A stretch of DNA of 31,836 nt from Bdellovibrionales bacterium (GCA_031428555.1 JANPPO010000025.1:1-31836); one strand, 5' to 3'. Positions 2,477 through 13,252 are shown, counted from the stretch's first letter. Notes: generated from the letters alone by a model not told the origin. Program-made: numbers and translations.

Positions 2477-2881
2477 ATGTTTTCAAACGACATTCGCATC
2501 TTAGTAATCGATGATATGCCTTCAATCAGAGACCTGGTTAAATCTCAGCTTAAAACCATGGGCTTTAAAACAATCTATGAAGCAGAAGATGGTGAAGCGG
2601 GGCTTGAGGCTCTGAATCGACATTATAAAGCGGGCGAGCCGATCCAGTTGGTGATTTCTGATTGGAATATGCCAAAGCTAAAAGGCTTGGAGCTGTTGAA
2701 AAAAGTTCGAGCAAGCACTGAATTCAAAGATCTACCTTTCGTATTACTCACATCTGAAGCCGAGCGTGAGCAAGTGACAGAAGCTGTATTATCAGGTGTA
2801 TCTCAGTATGTGGTGAAACCTTTTTCTGCTAAAATTTTCGAAGACAAACTTAAAACTGTCTGGGAAAAACACAAAAAATAA
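2477..2881 (+). CDS. Single-domain CheY-like response regulator
   Basis: VIDD, SDWNMP (phospho-Asp), LLTSE and YVVKPF; 134 aa with no output domain. Confidence 0.93.
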   Translation: MFSNDIRILVIDDMPSIRDLVKSQLKTMGFKTIYEAEDGEAGLEALNRHYKAGEPIQLVISDWNMPKLKGLELLKKVRASTEFKDLPFVLLTSEAEREQVTEAVLSGVSQYVVKPFSAKIFEDKLKTVWEKHKK

Positions 2882-2896
2882 TTTTCAATTCAAACA

Positions 2897-4837
2897 TTAA
2901 GCGACTTTTTTGATATCAACCGGTGGCTGACTGATTTTCATTGGTAAAACAGCAGCGGATGCTAATGGTAATTTGAATTTGAAAGTCGTGCCAACACCTT
3001 CATGTGATTCGATATCAACTTGTCCACCTAAACGATCAACTTCATTTTTGACAGCATCAAGGCCAACACCACGGCCCGAAAGCTCTGTGATTTCGGTTTT
3101 AGTTGAAAACTGGGGCTCAAAAATAGACATCAAAATCTGGTGAGGAGTCAGTCCATCGACAGGTAATCCTTTTTCCTGGCGCTTTGCTTTTACTTTATCG
3201 ACCGCAATTCCACGGCCATCATCTTGGATTCGAATTTCAATTTCATTATCGGACTTGAAAGCCGAAATCTTGATTTCGCCTTGTTCAGGTTTTCCAGCGG
3301 CAGCTCTTTCTTCAGGAGTTTCCAAACCATGATCAATTGCATTTCTGAATACGTGAACGAGTGAAGAAAGAAAAGACTGATACGGCTCAAAGCTCCAGCG
3401 AAAGTCCGGAGTCACAAAATTGAGAGGCTTCACTTTTTTATGTAGTGATTCAGCCGTTTGTTGCATCATGTAGTCATAGGACTCAAAAGTTTGCTGAAGA
3501 GGTTCAGTTAAGTAGTGGCTTTTAAGTTGCGCTGCCCATTCACGAGTCTTCGACCACGATTCCATTAGCGAAAGAATTTGAGTCAATTCAGGTTTTGGAA
3601 CTTCAACAACCGGGACTTGTTTTGCAGGTAATTTTCCAAGTAATTCATTTACTTCTTTTGTTAAGTGATCGAAAGAAGTTTGGAGTGATTGTAAAAGCTC
3701 ATCCCATTTGTTTTCAGAAAAATTGTCCCAATTCTGGATCATACTTTCGAGTTCATGAGCCGAATTAGCGACGTCACGAACGGAAAAGCTGGCAGCGCCA
3801 CCCTTAATCGTATGTAGAATTCTAAAAAGCGAATCCCTATCCCAGTTAACTGGTGGAGCAAGGGTTGCGCGGTTTAATTCTGATACAAGTTTTTGTGCTT
3901 CCTCAAAAAATGAAAGGAAAGATCTTTTCTGCTTGAACATTTTCAAAATGAAATTAGCATTTGATTTTTCTTTTTCAGCTTCTTCTTGTGCTCTGACCAA
4001 CGAAGTAATATCGGTCGCAACTAATACGATACCTTGAATCACATTTTCAGCACTTCGCATTGGATAATAATCTAGCTTTACCTGATTTCCCTGGCTGTGT
4101 TCATATTTAGCTGGACCTAGTGAAGCTAAATCTTCGAATGGCAAGAGCTCGGAAAACACTGTGGTTAACCATCGGGAAAAGCCTCTCACTTGGCTTTCTG
4201 GAAGTTTTAAAACATCCCAGATTTTTTTGCCAGCAGGGGATGATTCTAAAACTTTTTCGCAAGCCTTAGAAGTGATTTCCCAACAAGTGCCTTCCATATC
4301 AAAAATAAGAAATCCCTGCTCTAAGCTATCGAGTAGGGCCTTTAATTTGATATTAAGGCCGCGAATTTCAGTTGTTCGTTCCTCTACCATTTTTTCTAAG
4401 TTGCGAGAGTAGTTTTCCAACTCGCCTTGAGCTTTTTTAAGTTCTTCAATGACGTCTTGTTTGGCATCTAATTCCGCACGGTATTTATTTTGAAGTCTTT
4501 CTTCTAAGGTAACGTCACGAATAAAAGTAATCCAATTTTCAACATCAGGTAATTTTTGAACTGTAATTTGGATTTTGCCAGTTAGACCGTCAGCTGTCGT
4601 AAAAGAGACTTCCTTGTATGGAGTTGGATCTTGCACTTCAGCTAACTTTTCTAACGCTTCAATTTTTTCGCTAAACTGAAAAAGTGTATTTAAGCTTGGC
4701 TGAGACCGCATAATCTTTCGAACGCTTGAGGAAAGCAAAACTGCCGCTGTTTCATTACAATAGATGACCTTGCATTCGCTATTTAGAATGAATATAGGTT
4801 CTAGTAGTGGATCAAACAGCATATAGTTCAGGTTCAT
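2897..4837 (-). CDS. CheA-like histidine kinase, PAS-coiled coil-PAS-Hpt-HATPase, with no CheW domain and no TM segment
   Basis: PAS-like segments (EPIFILNSECKVIYCN; QGFLIFDMEG). Hpt FRILHTIKGGA. CheA-type ATP boxes HVFRNAIDHG, DDGRGI, IFEPQFST and SGRGVGLDAV. The protein ends about 20 aa after the last box. Confidence 0.9.
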   Translation of the reverse strand: MNLNYMLFDPLLEPIFILNSECKVIYCNETAAVLLSSSVRKIMRSQPSLNTLFQFSEKIEALEKLAEVQDPTPYKEVSFTTADGLTGKIQITVQKLPDVENWITFIRDVTLEERLQNKYRAELDAKQDVIEELKKAQGELENYSRNLEKMVEERTTEIRGLNIKLKALLDSLEQGFLIFDMEGTCWEITSKACEKVLESSPAGKKIWDVLKLPESQVRGFSRWLTTVFSELLPFEDLASLGPAKYEHSQGNQVKLDYYPMRSAENVIQGIVLVATDITSLVRAQEEAEKEKSNANFILKMFKQKRSFLSFFEEAQKLVSELNRATLAPPVNWDRDSLFRILHTIKGGAASFSVRDVANSAHELESMIQNWDNFSENKWDELLQSLQTSFDHLTKEVNELLGKLPAKQVPVVEVPKPELTQILSLMESWSKTREWAAQLKSHYLTEPLQQTFESYDYMMQQTAESLHKKVKPLNFVTPDFRWSFEPYQSFLSSLVHVFRNAIDHGLETPEERAAAGKPEQGEIKISAFKSDNEIEIRIQDDGRGIAVDKVKAKRQEKGLPVDGLTPHQILMSIFEPQFSTKTEITELSGRGVGLDAVKNEVDRLGGQVDIESHEGVGTTFKFKLPLASAAVLPMKISQPPVDIKKVA

Positions 4838-6546
4838 TCGAAGAAAATGTCCTTCTTTTTAAATACAAGGTAAAAGCGATTCGCGCGAGACCAATCAGAA
4901 TCAGTTTCACCCTTATCTGCTAAGGCTTTAACTCTCCAGTAGTAACGTCCGTTTGGAATTCTCTTTTCTAAAAGAAGTCGATTCCTGTCGGTTTTTTCAC
5001 TCCAGATAATATGATTGAAGTCAGGATCGGTCGCGACCTGTACAGCAAAGGTCTCGGCGTCTATAACTGCACGCCAGTCCATCCATAAATAAGGATTGTC
5101 TTCTTTCTGCAAGAAGACAGTTGTTTCGCTAAATGGGCGGATTAATTGAGGCGTCTGGATTGGATTTTTCAGATCATAAGTAAAGCGCTCAATATTTGAA
5201 GATGGGCTGATGGGTAAGCCATCTTCATTCGCAGCAAAAACTCGAACTGAATAATCACCAGGAGTTTTGACTTTGATTGAAGCGGGGCCTCTTGTTGATT
5301 CCATAACTTGAGCATCTCTAAATGTGCCATCTTTTGAAATTTCAACGCGATATTTGGCCTGTTTGCCGGAATGTTTCCACTGAAGCTTCACGTTCTGTGG
5401 TCCAACAACTTGTTCATTAGAACGAATTAAAATTCTTGGAATTGGATCAAGACGAGGGGCAAGGGAAGACACTTCGATCGTACCGATGTCACTTGGTTCA
5501 CTAGATGAATCAGCGTTTTCGCTAAAGAGTCTTACGAAATAAGTACCGGGTTGAAAATCTCTCCACGGATAGAAAGACTGGCCTGATTGGTAACGCTTTA
5601 CTTGCTCGAAGCGTGGACTATTTGAAACTTCAATTCGATATTTTTCCGCTAATTGCACAGCTTCCCACTTGATAACAGGTGGAAAATCAAACGAGTCAGA
5701 ATGAGTAATATTTTTAGTTAACAGTATAGGTGGTGGTAGCATGCTTCGTTTTTTATCAGTTAAATTAAATGTATGGATGAGAGATGTCGCTGCAAGTTTG
5801 CGTTCTCTAGTGTAGCCCTTTAGGCGGACATAGTACTGACCGTCTGGAAGCTCGATTGGTATTCCTGATTCAGTTTTCGTTGTTTTGATTTGTCGATCTA
5901 CTAAGTCAAATTGTGGTGAAGTTGAAATCTCGACGACAGTTTCCTGAATGTTGCTAGTGGCAGCCCAATTTAGATTCTGGTAAGTACGTGGATCTTGTTT
6001 GTTCAAATTAAAGTGTTTAGGGCTCTTCCATACAAGTTGGTTTGCAATCGAGGCAAGATTCCGATTTCCTTTTTCAAGATTCTGACCAGAGAAATCTTTT
6101 TCAAAACGGAACTTTCCAGATAGATTTTCAAAGCCATCTTTTGTTCTTAATAATAATTTAGAATTCGAGCTGAGGTCCGCTGAAATTGAACCCGATTTCA
6201 AATCAAGAACGAGTTGACCCTTATGCATTGACATCACGATAAGAGATTGGCGATCAATTTTTAGAATACTTCCATCGTCTAATTTGATTGTTGCAGAAGA
6301 GTTATCTCCAGTAAAAATACTATCGAATGGAAAAAGTTTTTCTTTGTTTCGAGCTGGAATCCAACTAAAGCTTTCGCTTACTTTTAAACGAACATCTTTT
6401 GTTCTTTCGACAAGCTCTGCAATCGGAGCGTTGTTATTCTCGCGACTAGAAAATAATAAAGAGTCATCGTACAACAAGTACGAGAACACTAGTATCACTA
6501 GACAACATAAGATGAGTAAACGTCTCTCGATTTTATTCAGTTTCAT
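4834..6546 (-). CDS. Membrane-anchored FecR-domain protein with four FN3/Ig-like repeats
   Basis: N-terminal TM helix; FecR-like DSIFTGDNSSATIKLDDGSILKI. Repeats VVEISTSPQF, YRIEVSNSPRF, YRVEISKDGTF and FAVQVATDPDF; C-terminal GRYYWRVKA. ATGA overlap with the kinase. Confidence 0.8.
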   Translation of the reverse strand: MKLNKIERRLLILCCLVILVFSYLLYDDSLLFSSRENNNAPIAELVERTKDVRLKVSESFSWIPARNKEKLFPFDSIFTGDNSSATIKLDDGSILKIDRQSLIVMSMHKGQLVLDLKSGSISADLSSNSKLLLRTKDGFENLSGKFRFEKDFSGQNLEKGNRNLASIANQLVWKSPKHFNLNKQDPRTYQNLNWAATSNIQETVVEISTSPQFDLVDRQIKTTKTESGIPIELPDGQYYVRLKGYTRERKLAATSLIHTFNLTDKKRSMLPPPILLTKNITHSDSFDFPPVIKWEAVQLAEKYRIEVSNSPRFEQVKRYQSGQSFYPWRDFQPGTYFVRLFSENADSSSEPSDIGTIEVSSLAPRLDPIPRILIRSNEQVVGPQNVKLQWKHSGKQAKYRVEISKDGTFRDAQVMESTRGPASIKVKTPGDYSVRVFAANEDGLPISPSSNIERFTYDLKNPIQTPQLIRPFSETTVFLQKEDNPYLWMDWRAVIDAETFAVQVATDPDFNHIIWSEKTDRNRLLLEKRIPNGRYYWRVKALADKGETDSDWSRANRFYLVFKKKDIFFE

Positions 6547-6651
6547 CCAGTTTCTATTTCGGAGAAATTGTGCAAAAGATTGACAGGAAAAGGTCTAGTA
6601 TAAGTCCTGTCATTCTCCCTCTTGAAAATGGTTCATGAGACCCTTTAACGA

Positions 6652-8523
6652 GTGAAGCTTTCTAAACTTTCCATTCGTTATAAGATCTTGTTAATACTGA
6701 CGGTTATGCCTGCAGCTGCACTAATGGCTTACCTTGCAATTGCATTAAAAGTTTTTAAGGATGATAAGGTTGCTTACGTATTCGATACGACTAGTCAGAT
6801 GTCGAGCTCAATTGCCGGACAATTAAAGACTCGACTCGACAATATTGTGAAGCTGACTCAACCCATTTTAGTCGATTTAGCTCAGTATCAGGACTTTAGC
6901 CGATTGTCTCGAGCCTTCCTTCAGTTTGATTCTTCACTTCAATCAATGGCGATTATGGTTTGGGATGATACGACGGGTGGTTATAAAGTCGGACCCGTCT
7001 TAGAAAAAGAAGCTTATGGCTTTGAAAAGTTTTGGACTCAATGGAAAGATCAGTGGAATCCAAGTTTGGTTCAGTTGTTCATGAATCAAACTGTCGTGAC
7101 GAATCCATTTTTAGATGATCGTTTTACATTGGTTCAAAAGATCGAACGTCCGAATGGCCGTCCTTTGCTTGTTGTTTTGTTATTTCAATTAAGTGATTTT
7201 TCACAACAGTTTCAAACTCTGTCGGCGCAAAATTTTTTCCTTATTCAAAAAGATGGAAAAATACTTTTAGGGCCTGAAACCTACCTTGGTCAAAATTTAA
7301 AAGATTCATTGCCCGTCAGATTTCTTGATTTAAATCGACAAGCGGGTGGTAGCGGAGTCGAAACCATAACTGACAAAAAAGATGTCAACCGACTTGTTTC
7401 TTATGCTTCAGTTGGTTGGGGAGATCTTTACGTTGTCTCGACGGTTACAGAGGCAAATGCACTCGGTGCTGTTGAAATTTTAAAAAGAAAGTCGCTTCTT
7501 TTCCTAATCGTCCTGATTTCTGCGACTACAATCTTAAGTCTATTCGCATCGAGCTCAATTACTCATGCATTAACAAAATTATTTGAAGCCACCGGAGAAA
7601 TCTCGAAAGGGCACTTCGATGTAAAAGTCGAAGTGGAATCAAGTGATGAAGTGGGCGCCCTAGCAGAGAACTTCAATAAAATGGCGGCAGAGGTTTCAAG
7701 GCTTGTTGTTCAGACTGCAGAAAAAGCTCGAATGCAGGGGGAATTAGAAACTGCAAGAATGGTTCAGGAAACATTATTTCCTCCTCCGCGCGCGGATTTT
7801 GGTAGTTTAGAGATAGCTGGATTTTACGAGCCAGCCAGTGAAGTCGGCGGTGACTGGTGGAGTTACACTCGCATTGGTGACCATGTTTATCTTTGGATTG
7901 GCGATGCGACTGGGCATGGTGCCGGTGCCGCACTTATCACCAGTGCTGCAAAGTCTGCTGCAGGACTTATTGAAACTTTAGGTTTTAGCCCTGCTAATGC
8001 GCTCCAGGCTTTGAATAAAAGTATTTACGATGTATCACGCGGCAAGGTCATGATGACGTTCTTCCTGGGAAAACTAAATATCAAAACTTATGAAATGGTT
8101 TACTGTAACGCTTCTCATGAGGCGCCATTTTTATTTAAAAGCAAAGATGGTCCTTATAAGAAAAAAGATATCGAATTTTTAGATCAAAATAATAATCCAC
8201 GTCTAGGTCAAGGTCGAGATTCGGAATACACTGAAACTACACTGCAATTAAGCGAAGGTGACCTGCTATTTTTCTATACAGACGGGGTTCCCGATATCAG
8301 AAATCCAAAGAATGAAGCGTGGGGAGAACGTGAATTCATAAAGGGATTGCTCACATCATTAAACACTTCCCCGAGTAGCCATGAAGCGCTGTCACATTTT
8401 TGCGAATCATTTCAGGTCTATCGTCAAGGTACTACATTAGCTGATGACCTCACCTTCTTCATAGTGAAAAATAAGGAAGATAAAAATCGAGAGGTAAGCA
8501 GCAATGAGCAAGTTTCAATGTAA
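6652..8523 (+). CDS. SpoIIE/RsbU-family PP2C phosphatase with an extracytoplasmic (Cache-like) sensor and HAMP domain
   Basis: Two TM helices. HAMP SDEVGALAENFNKM. PP2C motifs GGDWW, IGDATGHG, NASH, FYTDGV and DDLT with the metal-binding Asp residues intact. Confidence 0.93.
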   Translation: MKLSKLSIRYKILLILTVMPAAALMAYLAIALKVFKDDKVAYVFDTTSQMSSSIAGQLKTRLDNIVKLTQPILVDLAQYQDFSRLSRAFLQFDSSLQSMAIMVWDDTTGGYKVGPVLEKEAYGFEKFWTQWKDQWNPSLVQLFMNQTVVTNPFLDDRFTLVQKIERPNGRPLLVVLLFQLSDFSQQFQTLSAQNFFLIQKDGKILLGPETYLGQNLKDSLPVRFLDLNRQAGGSGVETITDKKDVNRLVSYASVGWGDLYVVSTVTEANALGAVEILKRKSLLFLIVLISATTILSLFASSSITHALTKLFEATGEISKGHFDVKVEVESSDEVGALAENFNKMAAEVSRLVVQTAEKARMQGELETARMVQETLFPPPRADFGSLEIAGFYEPASEVGGDWWSYTRIGDHVYLWIGDATGHGAGAALITSAAKSAAGLIETLGFSPANALQALNKSIYDVSRGKVMMTFFLGKLNIKTYEMVYCNASHEAPFLFKSKDGPYKKKDIEFLDQNNNPRLGQGRDSEYTETTLQLSEGDLLFFYTDGVPDIRNPKNEAWGEREFIKGLLTSLNTSPSSHEALSHFCESFQVYRQGTTLADDLTFFIVKNKEDKNREVSSNEQVSM

Positions 8524-8980
8524 AGTAGACCGACAAGGACAGAAGCTGACACTTCAATTGGGTGGAATAATTGATGAGGACGCAGACTTTGCGCCCTTAG
8601 CACTTCAAGGTGCACAAGAAGTCCAAATTGATCTCGATGCAATTAAAAGTATTAATTCATGTGGCATTCGAGAATGGATCAAGTGGATTGGCGCCAATTC
8701 GACTGCAAAAGTTGTCTATGCAAAATGTCCAAAAGTAATTGTTGATCAAATGAATATGGTTGATGGTTTTTTGCCGGCATTTGCAAAAGTCGAATCTTTC
8801 TATGTCCCGTATTATCATGAAGATTCTGGTTCTGAAAAAAATATCCTGTTTCGTTATGGTGTTGAATTCAAGGAAGGCCAAATCCAACCACCGACTGAAG
8901 TAAAGGATGAGAGCGGAAATCCGATGGAAATGGACATCATCGAGTCGAAGTACTTCAAGTTTATCAAGGCTAAGGTCTAG
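8504..8980 (+). CDS. STAS-like (anti-sigma-factor antagonist type) protein with a C-terminal extension
   Basis: LQLGGIIDED and IDLDAIKSINSCGIREW (Ser at the position of the DSSG phospho-Ser). 20-nt overlap with the phosphatase. Confidence 0.75.
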   Translation: MSKFQCKVDRQGQKLTLQLGGIIDEDADFAPLALQGAQEVQIDLDAIKSINSCGIREWIKWIGANSTAKVVYAKCPKVIVDQMNMVDGFLPAFAKVESFYVPYYHEDSGSEKNILFRYGVEFKEGQIQPPTEVKDESGNPMEMDIIESKYFKFIKAKV

Positions 8981-8990
8981 AAGTCTGGCA

Positions 8991-9011
8991 AGTGTTCCTT
9001 TCTGGAACACT
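8991..9011. other. Intergenic 8-bp hairpin with no U-tract (possible mRNA stabiliser or processing site)
   Basis: AGTGTTCC-TTTCT-GGAACACT. Confidence 0.5.
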
Positions 9012-9050
9012 CAAACTGTAATTTTAATTCAGAAAAACCGATAGAGAACT

Positions 9051-10991
9051 GTGGCAGAAGTCGGTTTTAAAATCTTAATTGTAGAAGATGACGCTAATCT
9101 AGGCGCAACCTTACGGGAAGCATTAACCCGTAAAGGTCATTTCGTATTTCACGTTACGAAGCCAGATGATGCAATTCAGCTCATGACTAAGCAGGTATTT
9201 AATTACGTGCTAGCCGATTGTTTACTTCCACAAATGACTGGTATTGATCTGATCAAAAAAATCAGAGCAGAAATTCCAAATGAAAGCCCTACAAAATTTC
9301 TACTCATGAGCGGTATTTACACGGATAAAGCTTTCCAGCAGGAAGCACTTCAAGAATCAAAAGCGGTTGGCTTTTTAAAGAAACCATTTCAGCTTGAAGA
9401 ACTAGATCAATTTATCAAAAAAGTTGAGCTTCCAAGTTTGCCAAATGCTTCCATTGAGAGTCCTCGTAAAAGGCTTTACGAAATCTTTGAAAAAGAAAAA
9501 GTATCTCCGCGTGAAAAAAGAAAGCTAATTGAGTCGCTAGAAGAGGTAGATGGCTACGATCTGCCATTTATTTACAGTTTGCTTGCTGAAACGAAGACCT
9601 CAGGTCACCTTAATATTTTCACTGACCGCGGTACTGTTTCCGGAGTCACGTTCTTCCAAGGCCTGATTGTTGGAGTTGACGTTGAAGACCAATCTACATT
9701 CCTAGGGCACATGTTAATCCAAAGTGGTTACTTGGCTCCGCAAGATTTAAAAGATGTCTTAAGTGATAAGAGTCCACGTCGTATCGGTCAAAAGTTGATT
9801 GATGCTTCAAAGTTAAGTCCTCATGCATTTGATATGATTTTAAATGAACAGATGAATGTCAGGCTAACTCGAACAATTACGGACGGTAAAGTTCGTGTTA
9901 ACTTTGTATCGACCGAGGTGGAAGAAATTTCTCCATCAATTGATTCCGATCAATTGACTGAATATCTTCATGATTGGGTTGCTTCAAAGATTCAACTGAG
10001 CTGGCTCGAGTCTTTATATCTGATGTGGTCAGGTCAAAGGATTCTTAAAAGCAGCCAATGGAAAGACGATCACGCTGTTTTTAAGACATCATTTTTAAAA
10101 CGTTTAAAGAATTTGCCAGAGAGACTTGCCCAAGGCGCAAACATCAATGAGCTATTAAGTACAGATGGCTACGATCCTACGTCTATCTACAAAGCACTTC
10201 ACCTTTTACTATTAAAAGGTTTGATTATATTTTCCTCTGAAAAAGTGGCTCTTGATGCGAGTGCTCAGCGGCAGCATGTAAAAAAGATATATGGTCAGAT
10301 TAGTAACAAAGAATCAAACGAAGTTCTAGAGCTGTTCCAAGATCTTCTGGCTTCGAAGCGCGAAGCTGAATGGTTAGATGAGCTCATGAAATTTATCGGA
10401 CCGGCTCCGCTGGATCCGGAAGTATTAAAGTTGTGGCAGGTTGTTAAGGATAAGTTTGATAAAGCTCTCAGAATTCATTGGAGCGAAACTGATACTCAAC
10501 TAACTGCAACTCGAAAAGAAGACAGTTCTGAAAAGAAAATCAAATCTATCCGTCTTATGGACGAAGCAAAAGCGCAGCTTCAATTGAATCGTTATAAAAA
10601 AGCGAACGAGCTATTAGCTGAAGTTTCAAAGCTTTATCCTCAGGCAACGGGCTTACGTGTTTGTGTGGCTTGGGGACAACTTGGAGCTTTGGATCCAGCC
10701 AAGAAACAGTTCCAGCTAAAGGACATCGAATTAGAATTGATGCAAGTACCGCCAGACGAGAGATACGATGCTATGTATCCATTCGTGATGGGTCTGTACC
10801 AAAAAGCGAAGGGCGACCTTGCAACTGCTCGCAAATCTTTTGAGAAAGCTCAGGCTATGGATCCAAGTTTTATTGCTCCTAAGCGAGAGTTGTCACAGCT
10901 AGATACAGCTAAAAATACTCCGAAGCAGGACGTATTTAACATGGATTTAAAAGATGTAATTGGCGGATTTTTCAAAAAGAAATCGGGCTAA
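9051..10991 (+). CDS. Response regulator: REC + DUF4388/PATAN-like domain + tandem MshEN-like motif + C-terminal TPR-like helices
   Basis: IVEDD, ADCLLPQMTG, LMSG and KKPF (REC). LLAETKTSGHLNIF..G.VTFFQGLIV (DUF4388-like). YQKAKGDLATARKSFEKAQAMDPSF (TPR). Confidence 0.85.
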   Translation: MAEVGFKILIVEDDANLGATLREALTRKGHFVFHVTKPDDAIQLMTKQVFNYVLADCLLPQMTGIDLIKKIRAEIPNESPTKFLLMSGIYTDKAFQQEALQESKAVGFLKKPFQLEELDQFIKKVELPSLPNASIESPRKRLYEIFEKEKVSPREKRKLIESLEEVDGYDLPFIYSLLAETKTSGHLNIFTDRGTVSGVTFFQGLIVGVDVEDQSTFLGHMLIQSGYLAPQDLKDVLSDKSPRRIGQKLIDASKLSPHAFDMILNEQMNVRLTRTITDGKVRVNFVSTEVEEISPSIDSDQLTEYLHDWVASKIQLSWLESLYLMWSGQRILKSSQWKDDHAVFKTSFLKRLKNLPERLAQGANINELLSTDGYDPTSIYKALHLLLLKGLIIFSSEKVALDASAQRQHVKKIYGQISNKESNEVLELFQDLLASKREAEWLDELMKFIGPAPLDPEVLKLWQVVKDKFDKALRIHWSETDTQLTATRKEDSSEKKIKSIRLMDEAKAQLQLNRYKKANELLAEVSKLYPQATGLRVCVAWGQLGALDPAKKQFQLKDIELELMQVPPDERYDAMYPFVMGLYQKAKGDLATARKSFEKAQAMDPSFIAPKRELSQLDTAKNTPKQDVFNMDLKDVIGGFFKKKSG

Positions 10992-10992
10992 T

Positions 10993-12666
10993 CTAAAATA
11001 CCCAAACCCATGCAGCTTCAAGTAATCCGCCAGATCTCTTTTCGGTGGATTCTTCGCTATAAAGTCCAACAGAATATCTAAGTTTACTTTGATCCTTAAG
11101 CGGGTGGTAAAGCTTCCATTTAAGTTCAGTTCTAGATTTTACTTCTAAACTACCAGCTTTAGCCGGCATTGAAGTTTTTAGAAAAACTTCCTGCCAAGTG
11201 AAATACTTAAACTTTTTAAAGCCATTTCCGATCCATCCAACGAACGGTGCTAGTGTTTGAACACTTGCAGATTCGAAAGACATGTTCTGAAGACCTGCGC
11301 CAACAACAAAGCTGGGATCAATTAGCTGGAGTCCTTTTTTTAATCGCCAGTAAAGATCAAATTCAATTAACATTGTTTTGAAATCGCCGGTCAGATCTTG
11401 ATTGAAGATCACCCCGAGGCCAACTCGCTGTTGAGTGATGTAAGTCAGAAAAGGTAAAGATTCGAACCACATTTGACCTTCTGCACCCAGGTACAAAGTA
11501 CTTTCAAAAGTATTCATACCGCCCAATAATTCAATCCGATTTGAATAAGCTCTAGAAAATGAATAGCCAGCAGTAAAGATGTCTTTTCCATCTACGACTT
11601 GGATTGATGAAACTTTTTCGTCTCCCACACTTAAATTCTTAAGTGACCAAGCGAATCGATTTCCAGTTACCGAAACATCAGATGCAGGATCCGAAGCTTG
11701 TGGTATTCCTTTTTCTGGTGACCAACCACGAAGTTCGAGGCTTGAAGCATATGCTAAAGTCGGACTCGATTTTTCCAGATAAAGGCGATGATCTTCAGTC
11801 GGTAGTGCACCTTGAACAACAAACTCCTGGCGCAGCGGAACTTTGCCTTCACCTGCAATGTACACTAAAGCCCGATCCTTTTTCAGACTGACACTCCAGA
11901 CGCCATCGCGAATAATTCTATATTGCGAAGGCGCAAGTGGGTAGGGCCCTTTGATCGTTATCGACATCAGATTTTCATTAACACTAATAACATCCATGAA
12001 ATCGAGATTAATGCTTCTTGTATCCATCTTAAATTCAGCACCAGAGGCTGCGATTGCGCGAAATGATAAACTTTCATTTGCATCATTTAAAAAAACAATT
12101 CCATGTGGAGTTACAGAGCGTCCATTAATCTGAATTCGCGGTTTATTGGGTAAAGTATTGTTTTGAATGACCAACTTTTTACCAGAACCTTTTGCAATCA
12201 TCTCCGGAGAGCAAATTTCCATCCCGGTACTGAGTTCATACTGACTTATGCAGTATTTAAAAAAAGACAGCCCTAAAAGTTTGGTTACAAGATCTGTACC
12301 ATTTTCAATTGATATAAAATTTTGATTATCTTGTAAGGTGGTCGACCAAACAGATACTCCGGATGGACTTAAAATATTGAGTGAACCCTTGGAAAAAAGA
12401 TTATTTGGCCATCTAATATCAACTTCAACTTTTGAATCGAGTGGGCGAACAGTGAGTTCGAAAAGGGAAGTATCAATGATTCGATTACCCAAAAGAAACC
12501 GGTAAGCATCACGGAGACTGTATTCGAATTTTTGTGGCAATACTTGAATATTATTCTGAGTTGCAGGAAATAAAAGGGGTTGTCCTTTTTCTGCGGCCTG
12601 ACTATGGTAGGACACCAATGAAAACAAAAATATTTGGAGTCCAAGCAAAGTTCTTTTAAAGATCAC
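10993..12666 (-). CDS. Exported hypothetical protein, beta-rich, probable C-terminal outer-membrane barrel
   Basis: Signal peptide ending SQA; alternating amphipathic strands in the last ~190 aa; ends EAAWVWVF. GTG start with SD GAGGA. Confidence 0.7.
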   Translation of the reverse strand: MIFKRTLLGLQIFLFSLVSYHSQAAEKGQPLLFPATQNNIQVLPQKFEYSLRDAYRFLLGNRIIDTSLFELTVRPLDSKVEVDIRWPNNLFSKGSLNILSPSGVSVWSTTLQDNQNFISIENGTDLVTKLLGLSFFKYCISQYELSTGMEICSPEMIAKGSGKKLVIQNNTLPNKPRIQINGRSVTPHGIVFLNDANESLSFRAIAASGAEFKMDTRSINLDFMDVISVNENLMSITIKGPYPLAPSQYRIIRDGVWSVSLKKDRALVYIAGEGKVPLRQEFVVQGALPTEDHRLYLEKSSPTLAYASSLELRGWSPEKGIPQASDPASDVSVTGNRFAWSLKNLSVGDEKVSSIQVVDGKDIFTAGYSFSRAYSNRIELLGGMNTFESTLYLGAEGQMWFESLPFLTYITQQRVGLGVIFNQDLTGDFKTMLIEFDLYWRLKKGLQLIDPSFVVGAGLQNMSFESASVQTLAPFVGWIGNGFKKFKYFTWQEVFLKTSMPAKAGSLEVKSRTELKWKLYHPLKDQSKLRYSVGLYSEESTEKRSGGLLEAAWVWVF

Positions 12667-13252
12667 TTTTAATTTCCTCGTAGGTCTTGTTCATCATGAT
12701 ACTTTGGATCAGGTGTAAGCATAAAGCCATTTTTGAGAAAAAGTCTGCATTTGATGGAACAATTAAGTGTCTAGGGTGTTGAGACCAGGCTTTCTTTATA
12801 CGTTCATTTAACTTCCAAGCTTCGCTATGAGTTTCTGTTCTAATTGAATTGGTGGTTTCATAGGCGTCGTTAGTTGCTGTGTCCAAGTGAAGGACCCATT
12901 GATACCGTTCTATTTCTTTCTGTGGCGTTGTCTGAAGGGATTCATAAAACGAGAGAGAGTTATCAGGCCAATACGCTATTCCATCAAGAGAACCCCTGTC
13001 GCAAACAATAGTGCCACTTGGGATTTGGTCTAGCGCTAGGCCTTCGAGTTCACGCTGAAGAAAATAAATCGCTCGTTGAATATGAATCATAGATGAATCA
13101 TTTTGCGCACGAGGCAATCCTCCCCTGTACAAAAGGCTAGCGGCTTCTGGAACAGTTTTTACTTCTTTTCCGAGTTCCTTTTTTATTGCTTCGATCAAAG
13201 TGGTTTTACCGCCAGAAGGGCCGCCAGTTATGACTATCGTATTGAAACTCAT
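12656..13252 (-). CDS. AAA_28/NadR-like P-loop NTPase (nucleotide-kinase-like)
   Basis: Walker A VITGGPSGGKTT, VPEAA, CDRGSLDGIAY and NSIRTE. Confidence 0.85.
   Translation of the reverse strand: MSFNTIVITGGPSGGKTTLIEAIKKELGKEVKTVPEAASLLYRGGLPRAQNDSSMIHIQRAIYFLQRELEGLALDQIPSGTIVCDRGSLDGIAYWPDNSLSFYESLQTTPQKEIERYQWVLHLDTATNDAYETTNSIRTETHSEAWKLNERIKKAWSQHPRHLIVPSNADFFSKMALCLHLIQSIMMNKTYEEIKSDL

Follow-up and report, generated by a model that had tools for sequence, protein, structure and literature searches.

The locus described here raises the question of what a partner switch, a type of circuit known from textbooks as a regulator of sigma factors, might control where no sigma factor is at hand and a histidine-aspartate (His-Asp) relay lies beside it. 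It is a six-gene island (positions 2477-10991) on a 31,836-nt contig of a Bdellovibrionales bacterium (GCA_031428555.1 JANPPO010000025.1; genome G000). We refer to this contig, at its full length, as the window, and we compared the island with relatives drawn from a sampling of 101 genomes of its family and a second sampling of 121 genomes, representing 22 families, of the phylum Bdellovibrionota (the codes f, g, G, and L below stand for family, genus, genome, and locus). Our answer, to which we give slightly better than even chances, is that the island is the local form of a conserved Bdellovibrionota system in which a sigma-less partner switch is joined to a His-Asp relay. Strongly supported within that answer is the genomic coupling of a triad, made up of a PP2C phosphatase, a STAS-fold protein, and a SpoIIAB-like kinase, to a histidine kinase, receivers, and a PATAN-TPR protein.

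All six open reading frames were located in the sequence exactly where a preliminary description of this DNA had put them, and the 105-bp divergent spacer that it reported (6547-6651) was likewise confirmed, separating a FecR-like/CheA-like unit from a PP2C/STAS/REC-PATAN unit. The FecR-like and CheA-like genes, which are coupled in translation, share a 4-nt overlap, and the PP2C and STAS genes a 20-nt overlap. Hydropathy analysis placed a single N-terminal transmembrane (TM) helix in the FecR-like protein and two in the phosphatase, with the other four island proteins soluble. A scan for promoters and terminators that included the divergent spacer returned sites no more common than in shuffled sequence, and for this reason we claim no promoter for 6547-6651. 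Pfam searches of the six genes revealed no sigma factor, no helix-turn-helix domain, and no recognizable RsbW, so that the statement in the preliminary description that the island lacks a sigma factor and a DNA-binding or transcriptional output held.

The first member of the switch is a sensor phosphatase of the SpoIIE family (6652..8523, + strand; 623 residues; SpoIIE E 2e-34, HAMP E 8e-10) with the domain order TM-periplasmic-TM-HAMP-PP2C, in which helices at residues 12-30 and 281-299 flank a periplasmic domain of about 250 residues. The metal-binding motifs of the PP2C domain (GGD399, DATGHG418, TDG543, and DDLT598) are all intact. The second member, the 158-residue product of 8504..8980 (+), was not matched by Pfam at E values up to 10, by NCBIfam, or by a 20-sequence profile searched against the sequences in the PDB. 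An AlphaFold model built from alignment A1 reached a predicted local distance difference test (pLDDT) score of 88.8, and its best fold match in the PDB was SpoIIAA in complex with SpoIIAB (1tid_D, E 9e-5, TM score 0.58 by target), with further matches to RsfB, RsbV, and an anti-sigma antagonist from Haliangium (4hyl). Because the sequence models were all blank, the STAS identity that had been proposed for this protein holds by fold only. Residues Asn51, Ser52, and Gly54 are invariant in the alignment, within the motif INSCGIREWI, and Ser52 follows a strand (39-50) and begins a helix (52-64) at the position of Ser58 in SpoIIAA. That the membrane PP2C and the STAS-fold protein, with Ser52, form a partner-switching pair is strongly supported.

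The remainder of the STAS protein, from about residue 95 to 158, is a conserved, β-rich C-terminal tail. In seven relatives where the STAS protein is fused to a kinase (P0265, P0270, P0271, P0285, P0298, P0344, and P0357) the tail after the STAS portion carries a CxxC...CxxC pattern, which suggests that the tail of the window protein is a degenerate zinc ribbon; this protein and its family have kept the tail and lost the cysteines. The STAS family is large, with 3729 cluster representatives found by its profile (clusters at 50% identity), and was found in 67 of the 121 phylum genomes and 13 of the 22 families, its members carrying "hypothetical" labels in the source annotation. Together with the partner kinase family described below, it makes two large families that are invisible to Pfam and NCBIfam. 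Paralogues of the STAS-like protein also occur elsewhere. One, in the Bdellovibrio bacteriovorus-type genome G047 (L055, 5221-5700), is followed by a gene for a 1000-residue protein (5757-8756) with no Pfam match and with a C-terminal part similar to the Ig-like repeats found in the FecR-like protein, and another (locus L054) lies downstream of a gene for an MscS-type channel.

A partner switch also involves a Ser kinase, and the statement in the preliminary description that the island lacks an RsbW/SpoIIAB-type kinase does not extend to the system as a whole, as the kinase is divergent, missed by Pfam, and encoded in trans. In distant genera of the family, a gene for 263-310 residues lies between the PP2C and STAS genes, and its product bears the motifs ExxxNAxxDAP, DxxGxL, and GGAGxG; no Pfam or NCBIfam model matched the proteins of this family. 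The genome search for an orphan RsbW-like kinase that had been recommended was productive when run by homology to these in-locus kinases, and it yielded exactly one homologue in G000, a protein of 286 residues encoded on contig C8 (2711-3571, - strand; locus L039) between lspA and lgt. A search of the whole genome with PF13581 (HATPase_c_2) gave weak matches inside long histidine kinases only and missed the C8 kinase. The complement of G000 is one PP2C (by tblastn), one STAS-like, and one kinase-like gene. The structural model of the C8 kinase (pLDDT 84) matched SpoIIAB (E 4e-6, TM score 0.71 by target), RsbW (0.77), UsfX, and SiaB (6kko), in each case over the C-terminal 170 residues or so, which are preceded by an extra α/β domain. 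The ATP-binding residues of the N-box (E..xNA), G1 (D..G), and G2 (GAGxG) are invariant across the kinase alignment (A2). It is strongly supported that the third member of the switch is a Ser kinase with a predicted SpoIIAB/RsbW fold, from a divergent and unannotated GHKL family and encoded in trans in G000. From its position beside lgt, the C8 gene is the orthologue of a 475-residue Bdellovibrio protein with an N-terminal cyclic-nucleotide-binding domain, and the window's genus has a 285-300-residue form of this lgt-adjacent kinase without that domain. The window genome has a derived layout. It has lost the in-locus kinase, its sole family member is encoded in trans and has shed the cyclic-nucleotide-binding domain, and its FecR-like and CheA-like genes are coupled.

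Several kinds of evidence join the kinase, the STAS protein, and the phosphatase. Fusions of kinase and STAS exist as proteins of 405-471 residues, and fusions of PP2C and kinase exist in family f12 as proteins of 850-868 residues (L058:9972-12575, -; L059:6794-9346, +). Both the kinase and the STAS genes are present in 99 of the 101 family genomes, with the same two genomes lacking both, and in about 30 of the 99 the best STAS match lies directly 3' of the kinase gene. One of the kinase-STAS fusions, P0265, adjoins a Pkinase-GAF-SpoIIE protein on an unrelated contig; the contexts of four other fusions were short or uninformative, and a SpoIIE-domain neighbour was found only at P0265. A predicted complex of residues 100-286 of the C8 kinase with the STAS protein scored 0.83 by ipSAE, an interface measure, compared with 0.00 for the best of three controls; among reference cases, 58 of 80 solved complexes and 2 of 110 mismatched pairs attained that mark of 0.83. 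The runs agreed in at least 81% of contacts, with a partner pLDDT of at least 88, and in the predicted interface Ser52 contacts the N-box helix (145-152) and the lid (243), with the STAS tail also contacting the kinase. As the SpoIIAA-SpoIIAB complex has already been solved, this result shows likeness and may reflect the predictor's memory of that complex.

The Bacillus switches (RsbU-RsbV-RsbW and SpoIIE-SpoIIAA-SpoIIAB) likewise have a PP2C phosphatase, a STAS protein in which a Ser opens helix 2, and a GHKL Ser kinase, the N-box helix and lid of which face that Ser in the complex predicted here. A classical anti-sigma circuit with a transcriptional output, the SpoIIAB-like kinase sequestering a sigma factor encoded elsewhere, would agree with the nearest solved folds, which for kinase and STAS protein alike come from the SpoIIAB-SpoIIAA and RsbW-RsbV pairs. 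We consider such a circuit very improbable, however, as none of the loci examined, across 13 families, has a sigma factor gene next to the triad, and as the kinase has extra N-terminal domains (α/β, or cyclic-nucleotide-binding in Bdellovibrio) rather than a minimal anti-sigma body. Unlike in the Bacillus switches, there is no sigma factor nearby, the STAS and kinase families escape Pfam and NCBIfam, the STAS protein has a 60-residue tail apparently derived from a zinc ribbon, and the kinase, with its extra N-terminal domain, is encoded in trans.

The relay beside the switch begins with a soluble kinase of the CheA type (2897..4837, -; 646 residues) with the order PAS-PAS-Hpt-HATPase_c. Pfam recognized the Hpt (E 3e-13) and HATPase_c (E 3e-21) domains, and the key residues are intact, with the phospho-acceptor His342 in LHTIKGG, the N box at 498, G1 at 539, and G2 at 588. 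The best NCBIfam matches were CheA models, with scores far below their cut-offs. Little sequence follows the catalytic domain, Pfam gave no CheW-domain match, hydropathy gave no TM helix, and no gene for CheW or for a methyl-accepting chemotaxis protein was found in the island. Its putative partner, a CheY-like single-domain receiver of 134 residues (2477..2881, +; Response_reg E 5e-22), retains Asp12/13, Asp62 (in DWNMP), Thr92, and Lys114, and its best NCBIfam match was CheY, at 1e-33 and under the cut-off of that model. In most family loci the CheY-like and CheA-like genes are neighbours, and in the cluster of the sister family f2 the CheY-like gene separates the CheA-like and REC-PATAN genes.

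The third putative relay component is a REC-PATAN (DUF4388)-TPR protein of 646 residues (P0005; 9051..10991, +). Its receiver is intact (Asp56, Ser87, and Lys111), so that the phosphatase and both receivers of the island are intact, as had been claimed. The PATAN domain (PF14332) scored 21.6 bits against a cut-off of 25 in P0005 and was matched in 13 of 14 orthologues (best E 2e-8). At about residues 217-267, alignment A3 revealed tandem motifs of the MshEN_N type, defined as a tandem 24-residue RLGxx(L/V/I)(L/V/I)xxG(L/V/I)(L/V/I)xxxxLxxxLxxQ. Unit 1 departs from this pattern by an F in place of R and a K in place of Q, and unit 2 by an S in place of G. Both unit-1 substitutions recur in Bd2402 of B. 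bacteriovorus HD100, where the G of unit 2 is replaced by N. Wang et al. (2016) describe Bd2402 as an MshEN_N-containing response regulator that binds cyclic di-GMP (c-di-GMP) tightly, citing Rotem et al. (2016) (PMC5013675). The Bd2402 block 206-282 in the supplement of that paper is identical to the orthologue of the REC-PATAN-TPR protein at locus L021, and in B. bacteriovorus-type orthologues of the window kinase Lys306 (AAA) lies just before the Hpt domain and the gene is four genes from the Bd2402 orthologue. Based on the identity of this block, the Lys306 codon, and the gene spacing, we conclude that the window holds direct orthologues of Bd2402 (the REC-PATAN-TPR protein) and of Bd2406 (the CheA-like kinase). 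The c-di-GMP input raised as a possibility in the preliminary description is thus plausible, given the reported binding by Bd2402. According to Lowry et al. (2019), Bd2406 is homologous to CheA and carries PAS, HPT, and HATPase domains, and a PAS fragment of it bound RomR in a two-hybrid assay and had a subpolar location (PMC6428892).

The relay has close parallels in pilus control. A PATAN-receiver protein is among the regulators of the Synechocystis Tax1 system (PixL/PixG/PixH), which controls type IV pilus polarity (PMC11181946, PMC10519157), and Synechocystis PATAN regulators are stated to bind PilB1 in the discussion of a further paper (PMC9090330). Like Tax1 and the Chp system of Pseudomonas aeruginosa (ChpA/PilG/PilH), the island has one CheA-type kinase and two response regulators. 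A CheW-like domain is part of the Tax1 and Chp kinases, which act together with receptors and CheW, whereas the kinase here lacks such a domain and carries PAS domains; the domain order here, REC-PATAN, is the reverse of the PATAN-REC of PatA and Tax1; and, unlike in Tax1 or Chp, a partner switch sits in the operon.

Within P. aeruginosa the switch itself can be compared with SiaABCD, another switch that works without a sigma factor. Its sensor phosphatase is likewise of the HAMP-PP2C type, and its output is linked to c-di-GMP and not transcriptional, as the output here may also be. This similarity raises the possibility that unphosphorylated STAS activates a diguanylate cyclase encoded elsewhere and that the REC-PATAN(MshEN_N)-TPR protein only reads the resulting c-di-GMP, which would agree with the c-di-GMP binding of Bd2402 and with the match of the kinase model to SiaB. 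In genus g3 a PAS-GGDEF gene comes first in the PP2C-kinase-STAS operon (L042:5932-7353, L043:5947-7320), a SiaABCD-like layout, and the best NCBIfam match of the phosphatase is SiaA. That match, however, scored 57.7 bits against a cut-off of 700 and covered the HAMP region, and the top matches of the STAS model were SpoIIAA and RsbV, not SiaC. No GGDEF gene was present in the island or in the family, f2, and f12 loci that were examined, and an orthologue of the g3 PAS-GGDEF gene in G000 was sought and rejected, as the three GGDEF matches in the genome align to it over the GGDEF domain only. We consider a circuit of this kind improbable. Unlike SiaABCD, the locus has no diguanylate cyclase (g3 relatives only), and its link to c-di-GMP is a putative receptor (MshEN_N), not a cyclase. 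The HptB-HsbR-HsbA pathway of the same species couples a partner switch with a His-Asp relay, and the system described here differs from both pathways in that its relay kinase is of the CheA type and from HsbR in that its receiver is not fused to a phosphatase or kinase. The RsbU-RsbV1/V2-RsbW system of Chlamydia trachomatis is a further switch without an agreed sigma target, and its membrane PP2C has a periplasmic sensor domain, as here; unlike the present system, it is not known to include a CheA-like kinase, receivers, a FecR-like partner, or a receptor for c-di-GMP.

The comparison of relatives carries the joining of switch and relay. In about 14 of 20 family loci, from many genera, the order is DCD, ChaN, CheY, CheA-like, and FecR, and divergently from these PP2C, STAS, REC-PATAN-TPR, an unknown gene, and AAA_28. 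In two genomes of the sister family f2, PP2C, kinase, STAS, CheA-like, CheY, and REC-PATAN-TPR genes form one co-directional cluster in which genes abut, overlap, or leave gaps of no more than about 80 bp. In family f12 (L058 and L059), a FecR-like gene for about 1000 residues is divergent from the PP2C-kinase fusion, after which come STAS, a HisKA-type kinase, and a single receiver, so that a histidine kinase of a different, non-orthologous class fills the place of the CheA-like kinase. In genus g3, PP2C, kinase, STAS, and PATAN/TPR genes are contiguous in G075, G083, and G089, with the same arrangement minus the kinase in G067; no PAS-CheA-like orthologue was found in this genus, and its PATAN-TPR protein has no receiver. 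The PATAN protein carries a receiver in the groups that have the PAS-CheA-like gene (the main clade and genus g31) and lacks one in g3, where that gene was not found. Two g3 genomes that are 99-100% complete, G002 and G043, lack the PP2C, kinase, STAS, and PATAN/TPR genes, all four. The synteny survey thus bore out the proposal that the genes belong together, most clearly in the single f2 cluster and in the joint retention or loss of the four g3 genes. Membership of the REC-PATAN(MshEN_N)-TPR protein in the same unit as the switch is strongly supported. As a minor point, the g3 gene directly 3' of STAS (488-518 residues) was considered as a PATAN relative and rejected, since it reads as a secreted β-barrel-like protein.

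On the input side, the gene adjoining the CheA-like gene encodes a membrane-anchored, mostly periplasmic FecR-domain protein with Ig/FN3-like repeats (4834..6546, -; 570 residues). The FecR domain scored 27.5 bits against a cut-off of 24, the Ig/fn3 matches were weak, and the TM helix spans residues 10-28. A FecR-like gene adjoins the PP2C gene in families f1, f12, f17, f20, and f22, and the FecR/Ig protein is strongly supported as a recurrent envelope neighbour of the phosphatase. In G002, a genome without the switch, a weak FecR-like gene is divergent from a TM-HAMP sensor lacking a PP2C domain (G002:C5:22568-24369), and the persistence of the pair there suggests that a FecR-like protein and a periplasmic sensor form a reusable input cassette.

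For the joint system we propose the following mechanism. The FecR-like protein would sense an envelope cue jointly with the phosphatase's periplasmic domain, and the cue would set phosphatase activity through HAMP. The balance between the phosphatase and the trans-encoded kinase would determine the phosphorylation state of Ser52. Unphosphorylated STAS would then either capture the Ser kinase or itself be released, so that the PAS-CheA-like kinase, which has no receptor, would change its activity or its partners. The CheA-like kinase would phosphorylate two receivers, the CheY-like protein and the one within the PATAN-TPR protein, and the PATAN-TPR protein may integrate Ser, Asp, and c-di-GMP inputs and act by protein-protein contacts at the cell pole (the RomR/MglA hub and type IV pili) rather than by transcription. 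In its most specific form, the STAS/SpoIIAB-like pair would directly gate a CheA-class kinase devoid of a CheW-like domain, with the envelope-sensing PP2C and its FecR-like co-sensor replacing the receptor-CheW input of chemosensory arrays and feeding a c-di-GMP-binding PATAN-TPR protein that regulates cell polarity in predatory bacteria; we offer this version tentatively and regard it as possible rather than probable.

A number of observations weigh against a joint system. Only gene order points to a connection between the switch and the CheA-like kinase, and we infer that connection, as we do the direction of signalling and the target. The activities measured in orthologues are the c-di-GMP binding of Bd2402 and the Bd2406-RomR two-hybrid signal only. 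This island has no in-locus Ser kinase, and the trans-encoded kinase comes from a lineage that bears a cyclic-nucleotide-binding domain in Bdellovibrio, for which reason it may serve another circuit. Further observations fit an alternative in which FecR/PP2C/STAS, CheA-like/CheY, and REC-PATAN-TPR are independent modules, adjacent by inherited order and without mutual signalling. The flanking DCD, ChaN, and AAA_28 genes of the family loci, housekeeping genes among them, are as conserved in order as the island itself, and part of the local synteny is therefore plain inheritance. In genus g31 three separate loci hold the FecR/PP2C/kinase/STAS unit, the CheA-like gene, and REC-PATAN-TPR, the last being alone in the DCD-ChaN-AAA_28 backbone. 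In HD100, codon 306 (AAA, Lys) of bd2406 is a stop and the gene is a pseudogene, and its deletion had no predation phenotype (PMC6428892), so that this strain tolerates loss of the kinase part. We nevertheless think independent modules unlikely: the two f2 genomes keep all parts in one tight co-directional cluster, another class of histidine kinase with a receiver comes after STAS in f12, and in g3 the PATAN-TPR gene travels with PP2C, kinase, and STAS on a different backbone, all four being jointly missing in two genomes. The scattering in relatives that the preliminary description had named as grounds for rejecting the island as a unit is thus found in g31 only.

A sigma-less switch that occurs phylum-wide, its operons linking it with histidine kinases and receivers, indicates that Ser phosphorylation and His-Asp signalling communicate with each other, and it suggests a route by which envelope contact signals may reach the polar invasion machinery. 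It also provides a context for Bd2402, a c-di-GMP binder, and for Bd2406, which has been read as a decayed RomR kinase. The preliminary description had put the island forward as an undescribed system, and this stands in part. Bd2402 and Bd2406 have already been studied, each singly; in the searchable literature they have not been joined into a partner-switching system, and a full-text search for Bdellovibrio with "partner-switching" returned no treatment of these genes as a partner switch.

The genes that flank the island also deserve mention. Upstream, the window encodes a ChaN/Tiki-type haem-binding protein with a signal-like N-terminus (1597-2472, +), which ends 4 bp upstream of the start of the CheY-like gene, and because of this short distance the two genes are probably co-transcribed. 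In genus g31 the REC-PATAN-TPR gene comes directly after the same ChaN gene. Downstream, a convergent gene (10993-12666, -) lies 1 bp from the end of the REC-PATAN-TPR gene and encodes a 557-residue protein with no Pfam or NCBIfam match; it overlaps the gene for an AAA_28 P-loop protein (12656-13252, -). Both of these genes are conserved neighbours in most family loci, and in g31 the 557-residue gene is absent beside REC-PATAN.

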